This document shows, piece after piece, positions 19,575 to 30,914 of a DNA stretch of 64,000 nt. Position 1 is the first letter of the stretch. The number at the start of each line of letters is the position of its first letter. Source of the DNA: Lachnospiraceae bacterium (lineage in GTDB: Bacteria; Bacillota; Clostridia; Lachnospirales; Lachnospiraceae). The stretch spans positions 33,972 through 97,971 of the forward strand of contig JAJQFS010000063.1 of NCBI GenBank assembly GCA_021200995.1, read 5' to 3'. The notes beneath the pieces were generated by a model that saw nothing but the letters and a program-made list of their open reading frames with translations, was not told the origin of the DNA and did not search any database. Made by a program: the position numbers and the translations under genes.

Positions 19575-21728
<2,154 letters not shown>

Positions 21729-21837: not shown

Positions 21838-21871
21838 CAACTCGTAAGTTACCAACTTACGAGTTGATTAT
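21833..21871 (+). repeat. Perfect 18-bp inverted repeat (3-nt spacer) overlapping the -10 box / start of the 5' UTR
   Basis: ATAATCAACTCGTAAGTT (21833-21850), ACC, AACTTACGAGTTGATTAT (21854-21871). GGAGG follows at 21878-21882. Confidence 0.85.
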
Positions 21872-21887
21872 ATCTTTGGAGGAATGT

Positions 21888-23279
21888 ATGTTTTACTGTC
21901 GGGAAGAAGAACTTCGCCTTATGAACATGCGTTATCGGAAAGACCGGTTTGAGTGTATTGTCATATATGGAAGACGGCGTGTAGGAAAAACTGCATTAAT
22001 CAATGAGTTCTGTAAAGATAAGCCAACAATTTATTTTTCCGCGTTGAATGCTTCTTCGCAGGAAAACCTTGAGGCGCTTTCCAGGGCAATTTTTGCCTGC
22101 AAAACTCCGGATACTGTTTCCACGCCTGTGTACAGCAGTTATGATGACGCGCTGGATGAAATTACGGCTATGTCCAGAGAAAAGCGTCTGGTGTTTGTGA
22201 TTGACGAATATCCTTATCTTGCGCGAGCCGAGCAATCTGTCTCTTCGAGACTGCAGCATATCATTGATCATCAGTGGCAGGATGGCAGACTGTATCTGAT
22301 TCTTTGCGGCTCTTCCATGAGTTTTATGGAATATCAGGTATTGGGATATGAAAGTCCACTGTATGGGCGGCGCACGGCGCAATTTAAAATTCAGGCGTTA
22401 ACATACAGGGAAATGACGATATTTCATCCGAAACTGTCCTGTCAGGATCAGGCGCTTTTGTATGGTGTGACGGGCGGTATTCCTCATTATATCAATAAAC
22501 TGGATGTAAAGGATGATATGGATGAGGCGGTTCTGGATAATCTGCTGGAACCTTCCAGCTATTTGTTTGAGGAACCGGAGAATCTGCTGAAGCAGGAGCT
22601 GCGGGAGCCGGCTGTCTATAATTCCGTGCTTTCCGCCGTGGCGGGCGGAGCCAGCCGCTCCAATGAAATTGCGACAAAAGTAGGAGCGGAATCTGCGGTA
22701 TGTGCTAAGTATCTGAAAGTGTTGATCGATCTGGGAATTTTGAAAAAGGAATCTCCGGTTTCAGAAAAGCCCGGCAGAAAAACAATTTATACAATAGATG
22801 ACAACTTTTTCCGTTTCTGGTATCGTTTTGTGTCCCGTAATATGTCCATGATCAGCGCCGGACGAATCCGTTCTGTTTATGAACGGGCGATTAAAAGCGG
22901 ATATCCGGATTATATGGGACTGATTTTTGAAAAAATGTGCAGAGAGTATTTGCTGCGTTATGCGAAAGAACTGCCCATCGTGTTGAGAGAAGTAGGGCAG
23001 TGGTGGGGAAGTGACCGTGAAACGCATCAGGAAGTGCAGATTGATATTGTGGGTTTGCCGGTGGATGGAAATGCCTGCCTGATTGGTTCCTGTAAATATC
23101 GGAATGAGAAGGTCGGCGTGGAGGAACTGAAACTTTTACAGAAATATGCTTCTGTGTTTCGTCCCGGTGGTACTTTTTATTACTATATTTTCTCTAAAAG
23201 CGGATTTACGCAGCCTTTACTGGAACTGGAAAAGCAGGGAAGGGTCACTTTACTGACATTGGAGGATCTTTATGCGTGA
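21888..23279 (+). CDS. AAA-ATPase with a DUF234-type C-terminal domain (PD-(D/E)xK-like)
   Basis: I trimmed to ATG 21888, 5 nt after GGAGG. Walker A YGRRRVGKTAL, Walker B VFVIDEYPYL, and a C-terminal EVQIDIVGL...LIGSCKYRNEKV nuclease-like motif. Confidence 0.8.
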   Translation: MFYCREEELRLMNMRYRKDRFECIVIYGRRRVGKTALINEFCKDKPTIYFSALNASSQENLEALSRAIFACKTPDTVSTPVYSSYDDALDEITAMSREKRLVFVIDEYPYLARAEQSVSSRLQHIIDHQWQDGRLYLILCGSSMSFMEYQVLGYESPLYGRRTAQFKIQALTYREMTIFHPKLSCQDQALLYGVTGGIPHYINKLDVKDDMDEAVLDNLLEPSSYLFEEPENLLKQELREPAVYNSVLSAVAGGASRSNEIATKVGAESAVCAKYLKVLIDLGILKKESPVSEKPGRKTIYTIDDNFFRFWYRFVSRNMSMISAGRIRSVYERAIKSGYPDYMGLIFEKMCREYLLRYAKELPIVLREVGQWWGSDRETHQEVQIDIVGLPVDGNACLIGSCKYRNEKVGVEELKLLQKYASVFRPGGTFYYYIFSKSGFTQPLLELEKQGRVTLLTLEDLYA

Positions 23280-24691: not shown

Positions 24692-24749
24692 GACAGTGCT
24701 CTGATTACCGGGAAGAGATATTCCCCGTTATTAGCGTGAGGCAGATTTT

Positions 24750-27386
24750 ATGGGAGAGGGAAAAGAAGCGAACACACAACAGCATATCTGCATCGGCCTT
24801 TTAGCTCATGTGGACTCCGGCAAGACGACCCTGGCGGAGTCCATTCTCTATACCCGGAACGCGATCAGAAAGCAGGGCAGGGTGGATCACGGGGACGCCT
24901 TCCTAGACACGGATCAGATGGAGAAGGCGCGGGGCATTACGATTTTTTCCAAGGAAGCGCGGGTGCGGATCGGCGAATATGAGGCAGTGCTTCTGGATAC
25001 GCCGGGTCATACGGATTTTGGCGCGGAGATGGAGCGGGCGCTTCAGGTGCTGGATTACGCCATTTTGGTGATCAGCGGCTCCGAGGGCATCCAGAGCCAT
25101 GTGCGGACACTCTGGCAGCTTTTACAAAAGCACAGTATTCCGGTCTTTTTGTTTGTCAATAAAATGGACCTGCCGGGATGTGATCGTGAGGTGCTGATGC
25201 AGGTTTTGCAAAAGGAGCTGAGCGGCGACTGTGTAGACTTTACGGATACGTCGAACCAGAATTTCCTGGAAAGCGTGGCTGAACGTTCCGAGGATTTGCT
25301 GGAATATTATTTACAGGGTAAAGATCTGCCCGTGCATCTGATTGGGGAGCTGATTTTGGAGCGGAAGCTTTTCCCATGTTATTTTGGCTCCGCCCTGAAA
25401 AATGAGGGCGTGAAGGAACTGCTGACCAGTCTGGAAACCTATATGCTTCCGGTACGCTATCCGCATGAATTCGGTGCGCGTGTGTATAAAATTTCCCGGG
25501 ACGATAAGGGAAGCCGTCTGACGCATTTAAAAGTGACCGGCGGGATGCTGCAGGTGAAGGCTCTCATCGGTGAGGAAAAAATCAACGAGATCCGCCTGTA
25601 TTCCGGCGCGGATTATGAGCAGGTGAACGAGGCAAAGGCAGGGACTCTCTGCGTGGTGACGGGGCTTACGGCTTCTTACAGCGGGCAGGGGCTGGGCTTT
25701 GAGCGGGAGGAAATGCCTCCAACGCTGGAACCGGCATTGTCTTATCGGATGATTCTGCCGGACGGCTGCGATGTCTATCAGACCTATCTGAAAATCAGAC
25801 AGCTTATGGAGGAGGACCCGCAGCTGAAGATCCTCTGGGTGGAGCAGAAGAGAGAAATTCAGGTGCAGTTCATGGGTGAGGTACAGATTGAAGTCGTGCG
25901 CGCCATGATACAGGACCGGTTTCAGTTAGCGGTTTCATTTGACGAGGGGAGTATTATTTATAAGGAAACAATTGCCGCGCCGGTGGAGGGTGTGGGGCAT
26001 TTTGAGCCGCTGCGCCACTACGCGGAGGTGCATCTGTGGATGGAGCCGGGAGAGCCGGGCAGCGGCCTGACCTTTGATTCGATCTGCAGTGAGGATGTGC
26101 TGGACCGCAACTGGCAGCGGCTGATTCTGACGCATTTAAAAGAACGCAGGCACAAAGGGGTGCTCACGGGCAGCGAGCTGACGGATGTGCGGATTTCGCT
26201 TACGGCGGGACGCGCACATCCAAAGCACACTGAGGGCGGTGATTTCAGGCAGGCGACTTACCGGGCGGTCCGCCAGGGACTGATGCGGACGGAAAATATC
26301 CTGCTGGAGCCGATGTATGAGTTTGAGCTGACACTGCCCATGGAGAATGTAGGCAGGGCCATGAACGATATTAACCGGATGAGCGGAACGTTTGAAGGAC
26401 CTGTCACGAATGAAATAAAGACAGACGGTGGTGACGGGATGACTGCAACCCTCTCCGGCAGAGCGCCCGTATCCACAATGCAGGGCTACCAGAGGGAGGT
26501 GGCTTCCTATACCAGAGGGCTTGGCCGGCTGAAGCTGCGCCTGGCAGGCTACGCGCCCTGTCATAATACGGAGGAGGTTCTGGAGGCGGCACACTATCTT
26601 CCGGAGGAGGATCTGGAGAATACGGCGGACAGTGTGTTCTGCGCCCATGGCGCAGGATTTGTGGTGCCATGGGATCAGGTGGAGGAATATATGCACCTGG
26701 AGACCGGGCTGACGGAGGCGTATGAGCGGGAGGCACCTGCCCAGCAGTCCTACCGCGCACAGCGAAAAGAACAGGAGAACAGTTCTGCATCGGACTTTAT
26801 TTCCCAGGAAGAAATCGACGCCATCTTCGCCCGCACCTACGGCACCACTTCACGTAAAAAGGAAGGCTGGGAGCGCATATCCCGGTCGGTTTCTCGTCCT
26901 GCGGCAGCGTCCGCAAAAGAGTATGTTTACCAACCAAAGCAACACAAACCTGAGGAGGAGTATCTCCTCGTGGACGGCTATAACATCATTTTTGCCTGGG
27001 AGGAGCTTTCCGCCATTGCTGCCGTCAACATCGACGGCACCCGTGATCGCCTGGCGGACATTCTCTGCAATTACCAGGGCTACAAAAAGATGACGGTCAT
27101 CCTCGTTTTCGACGCCTACCGCGTGGCCGGACACCGGGAAACCGTGCAGCAGTACCATAATATTTACATCGTTTACACAAAGGAAGCGGAGACCGCGGAT
27201 CATTATATTGAAAAGACGGTCAAACGTATGGCCGGCAAATATAAGGTGACCGTGGCGACCTCCGACCGCCTGGAGCAGATGATTATCTGGGGCCGCGGCG
27301 CCACACGCTTAAGTGCGAGAGAACTTTTTGAGGAGGTGGAGCGGACCGGGCAGGAGATACGGGAGTATCTATCTTTACACCCGTAA
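24750..27386 (+). CDS. TetM/EF-G-type translational GTPase fused to a C-terminal YacP/Rae1-type NYN ribonuclease domain
   Basis: G1 AHVDSGKT, G3 DTPGH, G4 NKMD, with EF-G-like domains through about residue 650. After a charged linker, residues ~738-878 read LLVDGYNIIFAW, VILVFDAY, ETADHYIE, VATSDRLEQMIIWGRGATRLSARELFEEV (YacP/Rae1 pattern). Confidence 0.85.
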   Translation: MGEGKEANTQQHICIGLLAHVDSGKTTLAESILYTRNAIRKQGRVDHGDAFLDTDQMEKARGITIFSKEARVRIGEYEAVLLDTPGHTDFGAEMERALQVLDYAILVISGSEGIQSHVRTLWQLLQKHSIPVFLFVNKMDLPGCDREVLMQVLQKELSGDCVDFTDTSNQNFLESVAERSEDLLEYYLQGKDLPVHLIGELILERKLFPCYFGSALKNEGVKELLTSLETYMLPVRYPHEFGARVYKISRDDKGSRLTHLKVTGGMLQVKALIGEEKINEIRLYSGADYEQVNEAKAGTLCVVTGLTASYSGQGLGFEREEMPPTLEPALSYRMILPDGCDVYQTYLKIRQLMEEDPQLKILWVEQKREIQVQFMGEVQIEVVRAMIQDRFQLAVSFDEGSIIYKETIAAPVEGVGHFEPLRHYAEVHLWMEPGEPGSGLTFDSICSEDVLDRNWQRLILTHLKERRHKGVLTGSELTDVRISLTAGRAHPKHTEGGDFRQATYRAVRQGLMRTENILLEPMYEFELTLPMENVGRAMNDINRMSGTFEGPVTNEIKTDGGDGMTATLSGRAPVSTMQGYQREVASYTRGLGRLKLRLAGYAPCHNTEEVLEAAHYLPEEDLENTADSVFCAHGAGFVVPWDQVEEYMHLETGLTEAYEREAPAQQSYRAQRKEQENSSASDFISQEEIDAIFARTYGTTSRKKEGWERISRSVSRPAAASAKEYVYQPKQHKPEEEYLLVDGYNIIFAWEELSAIAAVNIDGTRDRLADILCNYQGYKKMTVILVFDAYRVAGHRETVQQYHNIYIVYTKEAETADHYIEKTVKRMAGKYKVTVATSDRLEQMIIWGRGATRLSARELFEEVERTGQEIREYLSLHP

Positions 27387-27674
27387 CAGCAGAGCAGATA
27401 TACGCCGATCTTGCCAGATCCCGGCAGCAGATAGCGGAAGGCAGGGGAATTCCTATGGAGAAAGCATTGGAAGAAATTGGCAGAAAGCATGGTTTTATTA
27501 TATGTAAAAAATATCTTAAAAAATCTTGAATTTTATCTTTATCTCTTCTGGAAAATAATGTATAGTGAAATATAGCGTAAAGCTATATTCCGTTCTAAAT
27601 CATTTCGATTGGCCTGCCGCCGCCATCCGGTGGTAAACTGGTTGAAAACGCAGAACACCAAAGGAGAGAAACAA

Positions 27675-28223
27675 ATGAAAAACAATTCCGTCAGAAATGT
27701 CGTCGCAATCGGTATCGGCGCCGCACTGTTCTTTGTGCTGGGCCGCTTCGTGGCTATCCCCAGTGGGATTCCGAACACCAACATCAGCTTACAGTACGCC
27801 ATTCTGGGCATGCTGGCTGCGATGTACGGCCCCGTGGCAGGCGCGCTGATCGGCTTCATTGGTCATACCCTGATTGACTTATCCTGGGGCGGCAGCCCGT
27901 GGTGGAGCTGGGTCATCGCCTCTACTTTTGTCGGCGCCATCGTCGGCCTTGTCGCGAAGAGACTGAATATCAGTGAGGGTGAGTTCGGCAAGTCTCAGAT
28001 TATTCTTTTTAATGTCGCGAATGTGGTGGCCAACGCCGTCGCCTGGATTATCATTGCGCCGGTTCTGGACATTCTGATTTACGCTGAGCCTGCCAATAAG
28101 GTATTCGCGCAGGGCGCGATGGCCGCTGTCGCCAATATTCTGACTGCCTGCATCATCGGTACCCTTCTGCTGCTGGCCTACACCAAGACCATCGCCAAAA
28201 AGGGCTCCCTGGATCAGGAATAA
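27675..28223 (+). CDS. ECF transporter S component, UPF0397 family (substrate unknown)
   Basis: I trimmed to ATG 27675, after AAGGAGAG. VVAIGIGAALFFVLGRFVAIP...NISLQYAILGML...GFIGHTLIDL...KVFAQG matches my memory of streptococcal UPF0397 proteins. Confidence 0.8.
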   Translation: MKNNSVRNVVAIGIGAALFFVLGRFVAIPSGIPNTNISLQYAILGMLAAMYGPVAGALIGFIGHTLIDLSWGGSPWWSWVIASTFVGAIVGLVAKRLNISEGEFGKSQIILFNVANVVANAVAWIIIAPVLDILIYAEPANKVFAQGAMAAVANILTACIIGTLLLLAYTKTIAKKGSLDQE

Positions 28224-28375
28224 GTACTATGGAATAACTGCAGAAAGAGCAGGGCTGTTCGCCTTGCTCTTTTTCGTGGTGCGGCATATAACAGAGAAGT
28301 ACGATATAAAGCAAACGGGCAGATATTTCGGAAATGTCTGTTTTCAAAAAGTAAAATCAACAGCGAGAGAAAACG

Positions 28376-30088
28376 ATGCAGCCTATTATTTCCTTTAAAA
28401 ACTTCGGTTTTCAGTACCGGGCGCAAAAGCACCCGACCCTCTACGATATCAACCTGGATATCTATCCGGGCGAGCGAGTCCTGATCGCGGGACCCTCCGG
28501 CAGCGGTAAGTCCACCATCGGCAACTGCTTAAACGGCCTGATTCCCTTCAGCTACACCGGCGAGTGCACCGGGAGCCTTACCGTGGACGGCGTGGACGCC
28601 CCCAAATCCGGCATCTTTGAGCTGTCCCGGCATGTGGGCACGGTCCTGCAGGATCCGGACGGACAATTTATCGGGCTGACGGTGGCCGAGGACATCGCTT
28701 TTGCTCTGGAGAATGACTGCGTCCCGCAGGATGAGATGCATGAGACAGTGCGTAAGGTAGCGGAGATGGTCGGAATCACCGAGCGCATGGAATATGCGCC
28801 GCATGAGCTGTCCGGCGGACAGAAGCAGCGTGTGAGTCTGGGCGGCGTCATGGTGGACCAGGTGAAGATTTTGCTTTTCGACGAGCCGTTGGCCAACCTG
28901 GACCCGGCCACCGGCAAACAGGCCATTGAGTTGATTGACGATATTCAGAAGCGTACGGATACCACGGTGGTCATTATCGAGCATCGCTTAGAGGACGTCC
29001 TCTGGAAAAACGTGGACCGCATTATTTTAGTCAGCGAAGGACGGATCGCGGCGGATTTAAAGCCGGACGACCTGCTCAGCACCAGTCTGTTGACGGAGCA
29101 CGGCATCCGCGAACCGCTGTACCTGACCGCCTTAAAATACGCCGGCGTGGAGATCACTCCTGAGAAAAAGTCCGCTCATGTCGATACAGTGGTACTGGAT
29201 GAAAGCGACAAACAGAAGGTGCGCGACTGGTTTACCTCTGCGCCTCCCGCTCCCGCAAAGCCTGAGCGGCCGGTGCTTTTAGAGGTAAAAGACGTGACCT
29301 TCGGCTATAATCCGGAGACCGTGACGCTTCATGATATCAGCTTTCAGATCCGGGAAGGCGAGATGCTCAGCATCGTGGGACGAAACGGCGCGGGCAAATC
29401 CACCATGTCCAAGCTGATCTGCGGCTTCGAGCCACTGACGCAGGGCAAGGTATATTTTAAAGGAAAAGATGTCACCAATGATACCATCCGCGAGCGTGCC
29501 GCCCATATTGGTTATGTCATGCAGAATCCTAACCAGATGATTTCCAAGACCATGATTTTTGACGAGGTGGCTCTGGGCGTTCGCAATCAGGGCCTGAGCG
29601 AGGCCGAGATCAGGGAAAAAGTGGAGGCGTCATTGAAAATCTGCGGCCTCTATCCCTTCCGCAACTGGCCGATCTCCGCACTCTCCTTCGGGCAGAAAAA
29701 GCGTGTGACCATCGCCAGCGTCCTGGTGATGGGGCCGGAACTGATTATCTTAGACGAGCCGACCGCGGGCCAGGATTTTAAGCATTATACGGAAATTATG
29801 GAATTCCTTCGTTCCTTAAACGACCAGGGAGTGACGGTGGTGATGATCACGCACGACATGCACCTGATGCTGGAATACACGCCCAGAGCTCTGGTGTTTA
29901 ACAATGGCCGCCTGGTCTGTGATGAGGCATCCTCTGTGGTGCTGTGCAATCCGGACTTGGTGAAGGAAGCCGCGTTAAAGGAGACAAGCCTGTTCACACT
30001 GGCCAACCGCTGCGGTATTATGCCGCCGGAAGCCTTTGTGGACCACTTTATTGACGCTGACAGGGAGGTGAGAGACAATGGCCGCTAA
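28376..30088 (+). CDS. ECF/ABC transporter ATPase with two fused ATP-binding cassettes
   Basis: Two Walker A motifs (GPSGSGKST, GRNGAGKST), two signature motifs (LSGGQKQR, LSFGQKKR) and two Walker B motifs (LLFDEP, IILDEP). Confidence 0.92.
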   Translation: MQPIISFKNFGFQYRAQKHPTLYDINLDIYPGERVLIAGPSGSGKSTIGNCLNGLIPFSYTGECTGSLTVDGVDAPKSGIFELSRHVGTVLQDPDGQFIGLTVAEDIAFALENDCVPQDEMHETVRKVAEMVGITERMEYAPHELSGGQKQRVSLGGVMVDQVKILLFDEPLANLDPATGKQAIELIDDIQKRTDTTVVIIEHRLEDVLWKNVDRIILVSEGRIAADLKPDDLLSTSLLTEHGIREPLYLTALKYAGVEITPEKKSAHVDTVVLDESDKQKVRDWFTSAPPAPAKPERPVLLEVKDVTFGYNPETVTLHDISFQIREGEMLSIVGRNGAGKSTMSKLICGFEPLTQGKVYFKGKDVTNDTIRERAAHIGYVMQNPNQMISKTMIFDEVALGVRNQGLSEAEIREKVEASLKICGLYPFRNWPISALSFGQKKRVTIASVLVMGPELIILDEPTAGQDFKHYTEIMEFLRSLNDQGVTVVMITHDMHLMLEYTPRALVFNNGRLVCDEASSVVLCNPDLVKEAALKETSLFTLANRCGIMPPEAFVDHFIDADREVRDNGR

Positions 30089-30914
30089 AACTGTTTTAAA
30101 TTACATAGAGCGCAAAAGCTTTGTGCATGATTTGACCGGTGTGACCAAGCTGGCTTTTTTCCTGCTCTTTACCTTCGCCAGTATGCTGACCTATGATACC
30201 AGGGTGCTTCTGGGGCTTTTGATTATCAGTTGTCTGGCCTTCCGTTTCAGCCATATCAAATTTAAGGAAGTCCGGTTTATGATGGTGTTCATGCTGGTTT
30301 TCCTCTTGATGAACAACATCTTCATTTACCTGTTTAACCCGGATCAGGGCACCGCGGTGTACGGCACGCGGCATGTGCTGTTCCACTTTATCTGGCGCTA
30401 CGATGTGACGGCGGAGCAGTTATTTTACATGTTCAATGTATCATTGAAATATTTCGTCTCGCTGCCCATCGCTATCCTGTTTATCTCCGCGACGAATCCC
30501 AGCGAATTCGCGGCCAGCTTAAACCGCATCGGCGTTTCTTACCGGGTGAGATATTCTGTGTCCATCGCGCTGCGCTATATTCCGGACATCCAGCGTGGTT
30601 ATCACAATATCAGCCAGGCGCAGCAGGCCCGCGGCGTCGAACTCGGTAAAAAAGTGAAGCTCTGGACGCGTCTTAAAAATGTGGTGACAATCCTGATGCC
30701 ACTTATTCTTTCAAGCCTTGCCCGGATTGACGTGATTTCCAACGCCATGGAGCTGCGCGGCTTCGGCAAGGACAAAAAGAAGCACACCTGGTACATGGCG
30801 CGCCCACAGAAACGAAATGACTGGCTGGTGATCGGCTTTGGAGTGCTGCTTTTGGCGCTCAGCGCTGTGATTACCTTCTGGGATGGTGACAGGTTCTTTA
30901 ATCCGTTTATGTGA
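30078..30914 (+). CDS. ECF transporter transmembrane (T) component
   Basis: 278-aa multi-TM protein overlapping the ATPase stop by 11 nt. ALRYIP...ISQAQQARG is the conserved EcfT/CbiQ region. Confidence 0.85.
   Translation: MAAKTVLNYIERKSFVHDLTGVTKLAFFLLFTFASMLTYDTRVLLGLLIISCLAFRFSHIKFKEVRFMMVFMLVFLLMNNIFIYLFNPDQGTAVYGTRHVLFHFIWRYDVTAEQLFYMFNVSLKYFVSLPIAILFISATNPSEFAASLNRIGVSYRVRYSVSIALRYIPDIQRGYHNISQAQQARGVELGKKVKLWTRLKNVVTILMPLILSSLARIDVISNAMELRGFGKDKKKHTWYMARPQKRNDWLVIGFGVLLLALSAVITFWDGDRFFNPFM

Follow-up and report, generated by a model that had tools for sequence, protein, structure and literature searches.

A TetM/EF-G-like translational GTPase fused to a Rae1/YacP-type NYN nuclease domain in Lachnospiraceae and other Clostridia

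Background

The endoribonuclease Rae1 of Bacillus subtilis, also called YacP, cleaves mRNA at the tail of stalled ribosomes, 12 nucleotides 5' of the A-site codon, and possibly requires collisions between ribosomes to do so; the group that studies the enzyme has withdrawn its earlier model of action in the A site (PMC12407103). On collided ribosomes Rae1 generates substrates for transfer-messenger RNA (tmRNA), as described under the name ‘CART’, and it occurs in more than 87% of the Firmicutes genomes surveyed in the same work, in which no GTPase fusion is mentioned (bioRxiv 10.64898/2026.09.23.753862). How Rae1 finds stalled or collided ribosomes is a question that has been active only since 2025–2026. 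The gene considered here, in which a translational GTPase of the EF-G/TetM type is joined within one polypeptide to a Rae1/YacP-type NYN domain, offers a testable answer. It lies at 24750..27386 on the + strand of a 64,000-nucleotide stretch of contig JAJQFS010000063.1 (assembly GCA_021200995.1) from a Lachnospiraceae bacterium, and this whole stretch is referred to throughout as the window.

Fusions of TetM-like proteins with NYN_YacP domains in Clostridia have been reported before, their function being untested there (Atkinson 2015, PMC4342817; Matelska 2017, PMC5499597). Atkinson 2015 placed them in the Tet subfamily and speculated on a novel resistance mechanism (PMC4342817). The architecture is hence not new as an observation. 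What stands of the statement in an earlier note on the window, that no functional characterisation of the architecture was known, is that no functional study of the fusion was found in the literature searched, through 2026.

The fusion gene and its product

The gene is a single open reading frame (ORF) with an ATG start, 878 codons plus a stop, and no internal stop codon, as the earlier note had read it. The features of the gene and of its product are the following.

24738..24741, + strand: Shine-Dalgarno-like GAGG, 8 nt 5' of the ATG, read from the sequence
24750..27386, + strand: complete fusion gene (GTPase plus NYN), from the ORF reading; the identical protein is entry P0001 in NCBI nr, from a Lachnospiraceae metagenome-assembled genome (MAG)
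24780..25445, + strand: G domain, residues 11–232 (Pfam GTP_EFTU, E=2.9e-48), with G1 AHVDSGKT, G2 RGIT, G3 DTPGH (catalytic H87), G4 NKMD and G5 GSAL
25470..25949, + strand: domains II and III, residues ~241–400 (weak Pfam EF-G_D2 and EFG_III); a beta-barrel then an alpha/beta domain in the AlphaFold2 (AF2) model, with a predicted local distance difference test score (pLDDT) of 85–96; EF-G-like fold
25950..26288, + strand: domain IV, residues 401–513 (Pfam EFG_IV, E=2e-17)
26301..26567, + strand: domain V, residues 518–606 (Pfam EFG_C, E=1.9e-16)
26559..26699, + strand: subfamily C-terminal block, residues 604–650, in 149 of 150 representatives; AF2 pLDDT ~90
26700..26954, + strand: flexible charged tether, residues 651–735 (~85 residues); AF2 pLDDT 34–60
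26796..26855, + strand: conserved tether helix motif, residues 683–702, DFISQEEIDAIFARTYGTTS, from a motif profile hidden Markov model (HMM); AF2 helix 686–697
26955..27377, + strand: Rae1/YacP-type NYN domain, residues 736–876 (Pfam NYN_YacP), with D742, N745, D788, D817 and D839

Relatives were collected by a HMMER search of 1.84 billion cluster representatives at 50% identity, of which the best 150 matches, all of at least 647 bits, are the representatives counted here and below. The fusion is genuine, and neither a frameshift nor an assembly artefact accounts for it. The earlier note had named a stop or frameshift between the two halves as the finding that would speak against it, and among 85 NYN-bearing ORFs (that of the window, the best 80 loci in GTDB and further loci), which encode proteins of 753–1080 amino acids, none is split.

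The C-terminal half is the NYN domain. Pfam NYN_YacP (PF05991) matches residues 739–872 over profile positions 1–136 of 166 (E=3.6e-48, 164.1 bits against a gathering score of 24.6), and the domain aligns with residues 3–135 of the B. subtilis YacP/Rae1 sequence (PDB 5mq8) at E=5e-26 and 45% identity; the profile and the alignment together support the assignment made in the earlier note, and the NYN blocks quoted there (LLVDGYNIIFAW, VILVFDAY, YTKEAETADHYIE and VATSDRLEQ) are all present. Overall the module is 41–45% identical to the standalone YacP proteins of C. difficile and B. subtilis, and residues 737–876 are well folded in the AF2 model. The acidic residues expected to coordinate metal are indeed retained, with D742 found in 148 of 149 representatives, D788 in 149 of 149, D817 in 147 of 148 and D839 in 148 of 148. 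D742 and D817 align with D7 and D81 of Rae1 in the 5mq8 alignment, and the Rae1 D7N D81N double mutant is catalytically dead (PMC10351889). Standalone YacP has in addition a C-terminal tail of ~35 residues (...DRNYL...L...MEDL...), which is also found in the fusions P0448 (A. thermocellus), P0121 and P0051 and is absent from the whole clade of the window protein (P0001–P0006). A C-terminal truncation artefact was considered for the window protein and rejected, the related P0002–P0006 ending at the same place; the absence of the tail is native to the clade.

The N-terminal half has the layout of an EF-G/TetM-type GTPase, a reading of the earlier note that Pfam profiles and matches to PDB sequences support, the profiles for EF-G_D2 and EFG_III being weak. 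The motifs quoted for it lie at residues 19–26 (G1), 83–87 (G3) and 137–140 (G4). G1 to G5 are kept in 144–151 of 151 aligned rows; of the representatives, 148 of 149 have the catalytic H87 of DTPGH. Two motifs in domain IV are specific to the family, GxGH[FY]EPL[RK]HYAEV at 414–427 and G[RK]AHxKHTEGGDFR at 487–500, with conservation in ~150 of 151 rows. The AF2 model used here comes from a second run on a 64-sequence alignment in which fused and unfused members were mixed, and has a mean pLDDT of 84 and a predicted template modelling score (pTM) of 0.60, with the G domain and domains II–V at pLDDT ~85–96; it supersedes a poor first run on 50 close relatives (pLDDT 60, domain IV below 50). When this model was searched against the PDB with Foldseek, the top 50 matches were all EF-G, EF-G2 or EF-2 (E 8e-50 to 6e-42), with a TM-score, normalised to the target, of up to 0.72.

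Between the two enzymatic halves the earlier note had seen a charged, low-complexity linker of about 80 residues. A charged flexible tether does exist there, whereas residues 604–650 turn out to be a folded and conserved block and the tether itself contains a conserved helix. The block follows the pattern PCHN...Y616..D621..S628-V-F-C631-x-H633-G-A-G..V639.W641..V644..H649 and is folded in the AF2 model as a helix (607–614), a hairpin (628–639) and a second helix (641–647). It is the native C-terminus of the GTPase subfamily. Its cysteines and histidines are partly conserved (C604 in 131 of 151 rows, C631 in 130 and H649 in 137), and the full CHCHH pattern of C604, H605, C631, H633 and H649 is found in only 59 of the 151 rows; the block may bind metal, possibly as a candidate zinc site, which given this partial conservation is a guess.

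The tether that follows is constrained in length, with a median of 81 amino acids in 146 family representatives (5th–95th percentile 58–126), in which it is ~37% charged with a net basic part next to the NYN domain. In the AF2 model it forms weak helices at 654–679 and 686–697 and is disordered at 698–734. The helix motif xEEIDxIFxRTYG was detected by the profile HMM in 126 of 150 representatives, and Q686, E688, I692, F693, R695, T696, G698 and R702 are invariant among 50 close relatives.

Breadth of the family and an unfused clade

The 150 representatives are mostly 830–1000 amino acids long, with identities down to 41%. The NYN domain is present in 147 of them, so that the fusion extends over more than 147 clusters at 50% identity, and 119 of the 120 best clusters at 90% identity share the same architecture of GTPase and NYN. 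At least 593 species genomes in GTDB contain a relative, and the best 80 of these matches all span domain IV through to NYN. The carriers belong mainly to the Lachnospiraceae (Blautia, Roseburia, Dorea, Anaerostipes, Acetatifactor, Butyrivibrio) and the Oscillospiraceae (Flavonifractor, Intestinimonas), and cultured ones include Acetivibrio thermocellus, Pseudoclostridium thermosuccinogenes, Kineothrix alysoides and Monoglobus pectinilyticus. Three of the best 80 loci (L045, L071 and L075) come from MAGs labelled Bacteroides, Alloprevotella or Prevotella within an otherwise Clostridia-only set, and binning contamination is more likely here than real occurrence. The names given to members in databases vary from ‘TetM/TetW/TetO/TetS family... 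protection protein’, ‘translation factor GTPase family protein’ and ‘elongation factor G’ to ‘small GTP-binding protein’ and ‘NYN domain-containing protein’. Because the catalytic residues are near-invariant in the 150 representatives, both enzymatic halves are under strong purifying selection across hundreds of species.

Three representatives lack the NYN domain. P0269 (656 amino acids), the sole short one, led to an unfused clade of proteins of ~670 amino acids that is core in Bifidobacterium and is found in other Actinobacteria as well, as exemplified by P0334 (‘MULTISPECIES: elongation factor G [Bifidobacterium]’). These proteins are 50–54% identical to the window protein over residues 11–650 and share both the domain IV motifs (GHFEPLRHYAE, KHTEGGDFR) and the C-terminal block (PCHN...DSVFCAHGAG..V.W..V....HL). 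A Rosetta-stone test of the unfused GTPase found no separate NYN gene beside it. Since the unfused clade stops right after the shared block, the fusion is a complete autonomous translational GTPase together with a tether and a Rae1 module, and its GTPase body represents a distinct, autonomous and apparently uncharacterised subfamily of translational GTPases. We know of no characterisation of the unfused ~670-residue protein. Its database labels are inconsistent, with ‘elongation factor G’, ‘GTP-binding protein’ and ‘TetM family RPP’ all in use. The other two representatives without NYN have the same GTPase body and block and then diverge, P0251 (873 amino acids) ending in an Aminotran_4 (class IV aminotransferase) domain and P0165 (914 amino acids) in an extension without an assigned family; they could be alternative fusions or gene-call artefacts.

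Relationship to Tet proteins and to EF-G

The fusion protein resembles Tet(M) and Tet(O) in its EF-G-like five-domain layout and its intact G motifs, and these two proteins are also its best full-length matches among PDB sequences (233 bits), through one continuous alignment. The likeness is a distant one by the measures of curated models, as the protein falls below every cutoff. Its best NCBIfam model, NF012153 tet_protect, scores 380 bits against an equivalog cutoff of 775, and NF033148, the TetM/W/O/S model, scores 261 bits against 1100. The EF-G models are likewise below cutoff, with 253 bits against 659 for TIGR00484 and 292 against 583 for NF009381. The GTPase body is 28–31% identical to plasmid-borne Tet(M), Tet(O), Tet(W), Tet(S), Tet(36) and Otr(A), and the matches to Tet proteins end at residue 588. 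Unlike the Tet proteins, the fusion adds a 47-residue block, the tether and the nuclease.

The tip of domain IV also differs. In TetM, Ser508-Pro509-Val510 at the tip of loop 3 of domain IV clashes with tetracycline and dislodges the drug (PMC7456112). The HMMER alignment with TetM (3j9y) places P491-K492-H493 of the fusion at S508-P509-V510, with A489-H490-P491-K492-H493 lying opposite Y506-Y507-S508-P509-V510, so that the S-P-V tip is missing; K492 is kept in 140 of 151 rows and H493 in 150 of 151. H490, kept in 132 of 151 rows, aligns with the tip-loop histidine of Staphylococcus aureus EF-G (GSYHDVDSS), whose surrounding loop differs. Domain IV alone, when searched against PDB sequences, matched 17 EF-G entries at E<=1e-3 and no Tet protein.

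With EF-G (fusA) the fusion shares the five-domain fold, and its domain IV is nearer in sequence to EF-G than to Tet. In contrast to EF-G, its alignment breaks in the G' region, loop 1 of its domain IV is shorter by 4 residues and its gene lies outside the str operon (rpsL-rpsG-fusA-tuf). The gene is moreover non-mobile, unlike tet(M) and tet(O). Among 72,556 plasmid records the fusion turns up in just 2, each a replicon larger than 250 kb, and no mobile-element neighbours were found at the window gene or among the family loci examined. The plasmid collection itself contains records that are evidently chromosomal fragments (among NZ_CP149721.1 and the NZ_OY7257xx series), including ~100-kb C. 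difficile records with gltX-cysS-rlmB-sigH-tuf-rplK. Because of the scores below cutoff, the identity of 28–31%, the missing S-P-V tip and the lack of mobility, the fusion protein does not count as a true Tet protein, and a role as a tetracycline-resistance determinant is unlikely. The suspicion in the earlier note that this might not be merely a ribosomal protection protein is thus strengthened by the cutoff scores, the TetM alignment and the identity values.

Standalone Rae1 and its possible replacement

In C. difficile the canonical yacP locus reads gltX-cysS-mrnC-thyX-rlmB-yacP-sigH-tuf. In M. pectinilyticus, at least 2.06 Mb of the assembly yield the fusion as their sole NYN_YacP match; the same search found standalone YacP in Clostridioides, Bacillus, Listeria and Staphylococcus, the C. 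difficile proteins being listed at E ~1e-27. The rlmB gene of M. pectinilyticus is followed by a phosphoesterase gene and pgeF, leaving the canonical yacP slot empty, and an rlmB locus of Vescimonas (Oscillospiraceae) is also without yacP. These observations, from one species over part of its assembly and from rlmB loci, suggest that the fusion replaces standalone Rae1. The Monoglobus assembly is split in the database into at least 20 ‘plasmid’ records of up to 518 kb.

Genomic context and expression signals

The window gene is flanked by a serine-dehydratase-alpha-like gene and an ECF riboflavin transporter, and the gap to the upstream gene is 58 nt. Neither a leader peptide nor an attenuator of the tet(M) type was found in this gap. 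A promoter and terminator scan gave background levels only, and the 64-kb window holds no Rfam family at gathering score and no tRNA. An antitoxin-like frame at 27386–27529, just after the stop codon, was dropped, as no start codon precedes the 24-residue ORF and it has no Pfam match.

Gene neighbourhoods differ completely among family members. Clustering of the ORFs around 82 loci revealed no conserved neighbour, the most frequent being MatE (11 loci), GreA (8) and a response regulator (8), and when the 135 genes directly beside the fusion were scanned with Pfam, no family turned up in more than 5 of them. Co-expression with helix-turn-helix (HTH) proteins, put forward by Matelska 2017, was not reproduced, HTH families each occurring in 2 of the 135 flanking genes. 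No PADLOC family matched the fusion beyond a chance-level TIR match (E=2e-4), and of 2.9 million viral contigs 7 carried a relative, mostly of the unfused type at contig ends. As no neighbour is conserved, the gene behaves as a self-sufficient chromosomal gene of the housekeeping type.

Three further sets of genes in the window may be recorded. Two genes upstream of the fusion, at 21864–23279 (+), lies an ATPase_2 (PF01637) gene with DUF234 that matches PADLOC PDC-S27 (E=1.4e-51) and is not a conserved neighbour. A NifH/frxC-family protein is encoded at 21000–21728 (+; E=2e-106) and adjoins a nitrogenase component-1-type oxidoreductase at 19575–20906, so that 19575–21728 (+) encodes a nitrogenase-like reductase pair in this Lachnospiraceae genome. 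Downstream, 27609–30914 (+) comprises a riboflavin-type S component of an energy-coupling factor (ECF) transporter, then a fused double ATP-binding cassette (ABC) ATPase and then a CbiQ/EcfT gene; no Rfam match to a flavin mononucleotide (FMN) riboswitch was obtained upstream of it at gathering score.

A proposed mechanism and its alternatives

On balance we lean towards a reading in which the fusion serves the rescue of stalled or collided ribosomes, as an mRNA nuclease that is tethered and gated by GTP. The GTPase-delivered, ribosome-associated nuclease that the earlier note proposed remains the best reading, since both domain assignments and the catalytic residues hold, whilst the notion that Rae1 and the GTPase share the A site is outdated, given that Rae1 cuts behind stalled or collided ribosomes. 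The GTPase body would bind the ribosomal factor site (the GTPase-associated centre), where its His-rich domain IV would enter the decoding region. The substrate might be a stalled ribosome with a vacant A site, which is the state bound by Tet proteins, or else a collided, rotated ribosome on which EF-G is unable to carry out translocation. The nuclease would reach a higher local concentration through binding and GTP hydrolysis, which would also time or license cleavage, the mRNA being cut at the boundary of the stalled ribosome as with B. subtilis Rae1, and the truncated mRNA could then lead to release of the ribosome via trans-translation by tmRNA. In those Clostridia that carry the fusion, the GTPase would bring the nuclease to the ribosome, a task that standalone Rae1 accomplishes in another way.

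A disome would provide a suitable geometry, for the factor site and the mRNA entry of the trailing ribosome are expected to adjoin the mRNA exit of the leading one, where Rae1 cuts, and a tether of 58–126 residues could thus plausibly bridge the two positions. By a rough estimate such a tether reaches ~60 Å on average and nearly 300 Å when fully extended.

Several points weigh against this proposal. For every member of the family, homology is the basis on which ribosome binding, GTPase activity, RNA cleavage and the substrate are assigned. On a single ribosome the factor site is far from the position at which Rae1 cleaves, on the mRNA exit side, and hence the model needs either a long reach of the tether or action across the disome interface. 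The unfused Bifidobacterium clade implies a GTPase function without a nuclease, to which the nuclease could be an add-on, and the operon of standalone yacP with rRNA-processing and rRNA-modifying genes leaves room for an rRNA substrate. The absence of standalone Rae1 from fusion-bearing genomes has been examined in part, in one species.

A more ambitious version of the tethered-nuclease reading is conceivable, if doubtful. It would make the GTPase body, unfused in Bifidobacterium and fused in Clostridia, an unrecognised subfamily that specifically senses stalled or collided ribosomes by means of an EF-G-like domain IV whose His-rich tip is unique, and the fused form an obligatory GTP-gated vehicle of Rae1 that has replaced the standalone enzyme in Lachnospiraceae, Oscillospiraceae and Acetivibrio. 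If it were true, standalone Rae1 elsewhere would be predicted to cooperate with a translational GTPase in trans.

One rival reading is a nuclease of ribosome maturation or turnover. Its GTPase would engage 70S or 30S particles that are immature, damaged or idle, and its tethered NYN domain would act on rRNA and not on mRNA, for instance in 16S 3'-end trimming or in an inactivating cleavage. A eukaryotic analogy is offered by eIF5B, a GTPase that triggers the PIN nuclease Nob1 within 80S-like particles. Such a role would suit the position of standalone yacP in the operon cysS-mrnC(mini-RNase III)-rlmB-yacP-sigH (PMC5499597) and the prediction of rRNA/tRNA maturation for NYN_YacP cited by Atkinson 2015 (PMC4342817); the tether would give the nuclease access to many rRNA sites, and the GTPases of the unfused clade could themselves work in biogenesis or quality control. 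The experiments on Rae1, however, show translation-dependent cleavage of mRNA with no rRNA-processing role reported (PMC10351889, PMC12407103, bioRxiv 10.64898/2026.09.23.753862), and at the 82 loci and among the 135 flanking genes the fusion is never beside rRNA-processing genes; we judge an rRNA nuclease to be unlikely. Much the same scepticism applies, to a slightly greater degree, to a gene-specific regulator that would cut a few mRNAs at programmed stalls, such as those of efflux or stress genes, in the way that Rae1 acts on spyA and bmrX. The first Rae1 targets were indeed specific short ORFs with programmed stalls (PMC10351889, PMC12407103), and MatE efflux genes are the most frequent neighbour, albeit at 11 of 82 loci. 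Yet the same loci and flanking genes yield no conserved neighbour or target candidate, conservation over hundreds of species argues for a general role, and tmRNA tagging has been described as rising globally, and in dependence on Rae1, when ribosomes collide (bioRxiv 10.64898/2026.09.23.753862).

Two further readings start from the GTPase or from the ribosome as a target. That the protein is a tetracycline ribosomal protection protein, with the nuclease as an accessory that aids resistance, accords with TetM and TetO as best full-length matches, with tet_protect as the top NCBIfam model and with the placement in the Tet subfamily by Atkinson 2015 (PMC4342817). It is nevertheless very improbable, given the scores below the equivalog cutoffs, the 28–31% identity, the P-K-H that replaces S-P-V, a domain IV that on its own matches EF-G and not Tet, the missing leader or attenuator, and a core-like chromosomal distribution over at least 593 species with no mobile-element context and with hardly any plasmid records. 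RelE and other mRNA nucleases that depend on the ribosome are well-known toxins, and some defence systems contain NYN or PIN domains. On these grounds one might consider the alternative, raised in the earlier note, of a toxin aimed at translation or of a defence effector, here one of abortive infection against phages, the more so as the DUF234 ATPase two genes upstream matches the PADLOC candidate PDC-S27. That gene is not conserved beside the fusion, though, and no antitoxin, immunity or partner gene is either, the most frequent family occurring in 5 of the 135 genes at its flanks; PADLOC gives no match to the fusion above chance level, and phages and plasmids hardly ever carry it, which leaves the alternative unsupported and, in our estimation, the least credible of all.

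Significance

As a mechanism, the proposed fusion enzyme would be new, as a variant of the Rae1-type ribosome-associated nuclease. It is present in tractable organisms, for example Acetivibrio thermocellus and Anaerostipes, and it exposes a subfamily of translational GTPases that belongs to the core genes of Bifidobacterium and of many dominant Clostridia of the gut. Many members carry the label ‘TetM/TetW/TetO/TetS family tetracycline resistance ribosomal protection protein’ at NCBI and JGI, which is a probable case of systematic mis-annotation. As the gene is found in hundreds of abundant gut species, this mislabelling can inflate resistome estimates.

Comparison with known systems

The closest described counterpart of the nuclease half is B. 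subtilis Rae1/YacP (PDB 5MQ8/5MQ9), with which it shares the NYN_YacP domain over ~135 residues, the equivalents of D7 and D81 and other acidic residues. Whilst Rae1 is a single-domain protein of ~170 amino acids, the NYN domain of the fusion is the C-terminal module of an 878-residue GTPase, which presumably supplies the ribosome targeting, and the fusion gene lies outside the rlmB-yacP-sigH neighbourhood of standalone yacP. The closest counterpart of the GTPase half is the unfused translational GTPase of Bifidobacterium, which ends directly after the C-terminal block and has neither tether nor NYN domain.

Nucleases that act at collisions or stalls are SmrB in Escherichia coli, Cue2 in yeast and NONU-1 in Caenorhabditis elegans, and Hbs1-Dom34 is a rescue module delivered by a GTPase. 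To our knowledge, none of these systems joins a nuclease covalently to a translational GTPase. The comparison with SmrB, Cue2 and NONU-1 is one of function only, in that the same logic is proposed of sensing a stall, cutting the mRNA and handing over to rescue, as SMR and NYN are unrelated nuclease folds. An analogy between SmrB and Rae1 has also been drawn in a preprint (bioRxiv 10.64898/2026.09.23.753862). If the tethered-nuclease reading is true, the fusion would be a bacterial counterpart of Hbs1-Dom34 together with Cue2, in which sensor, timer and nuclease are united in one polypeptide.

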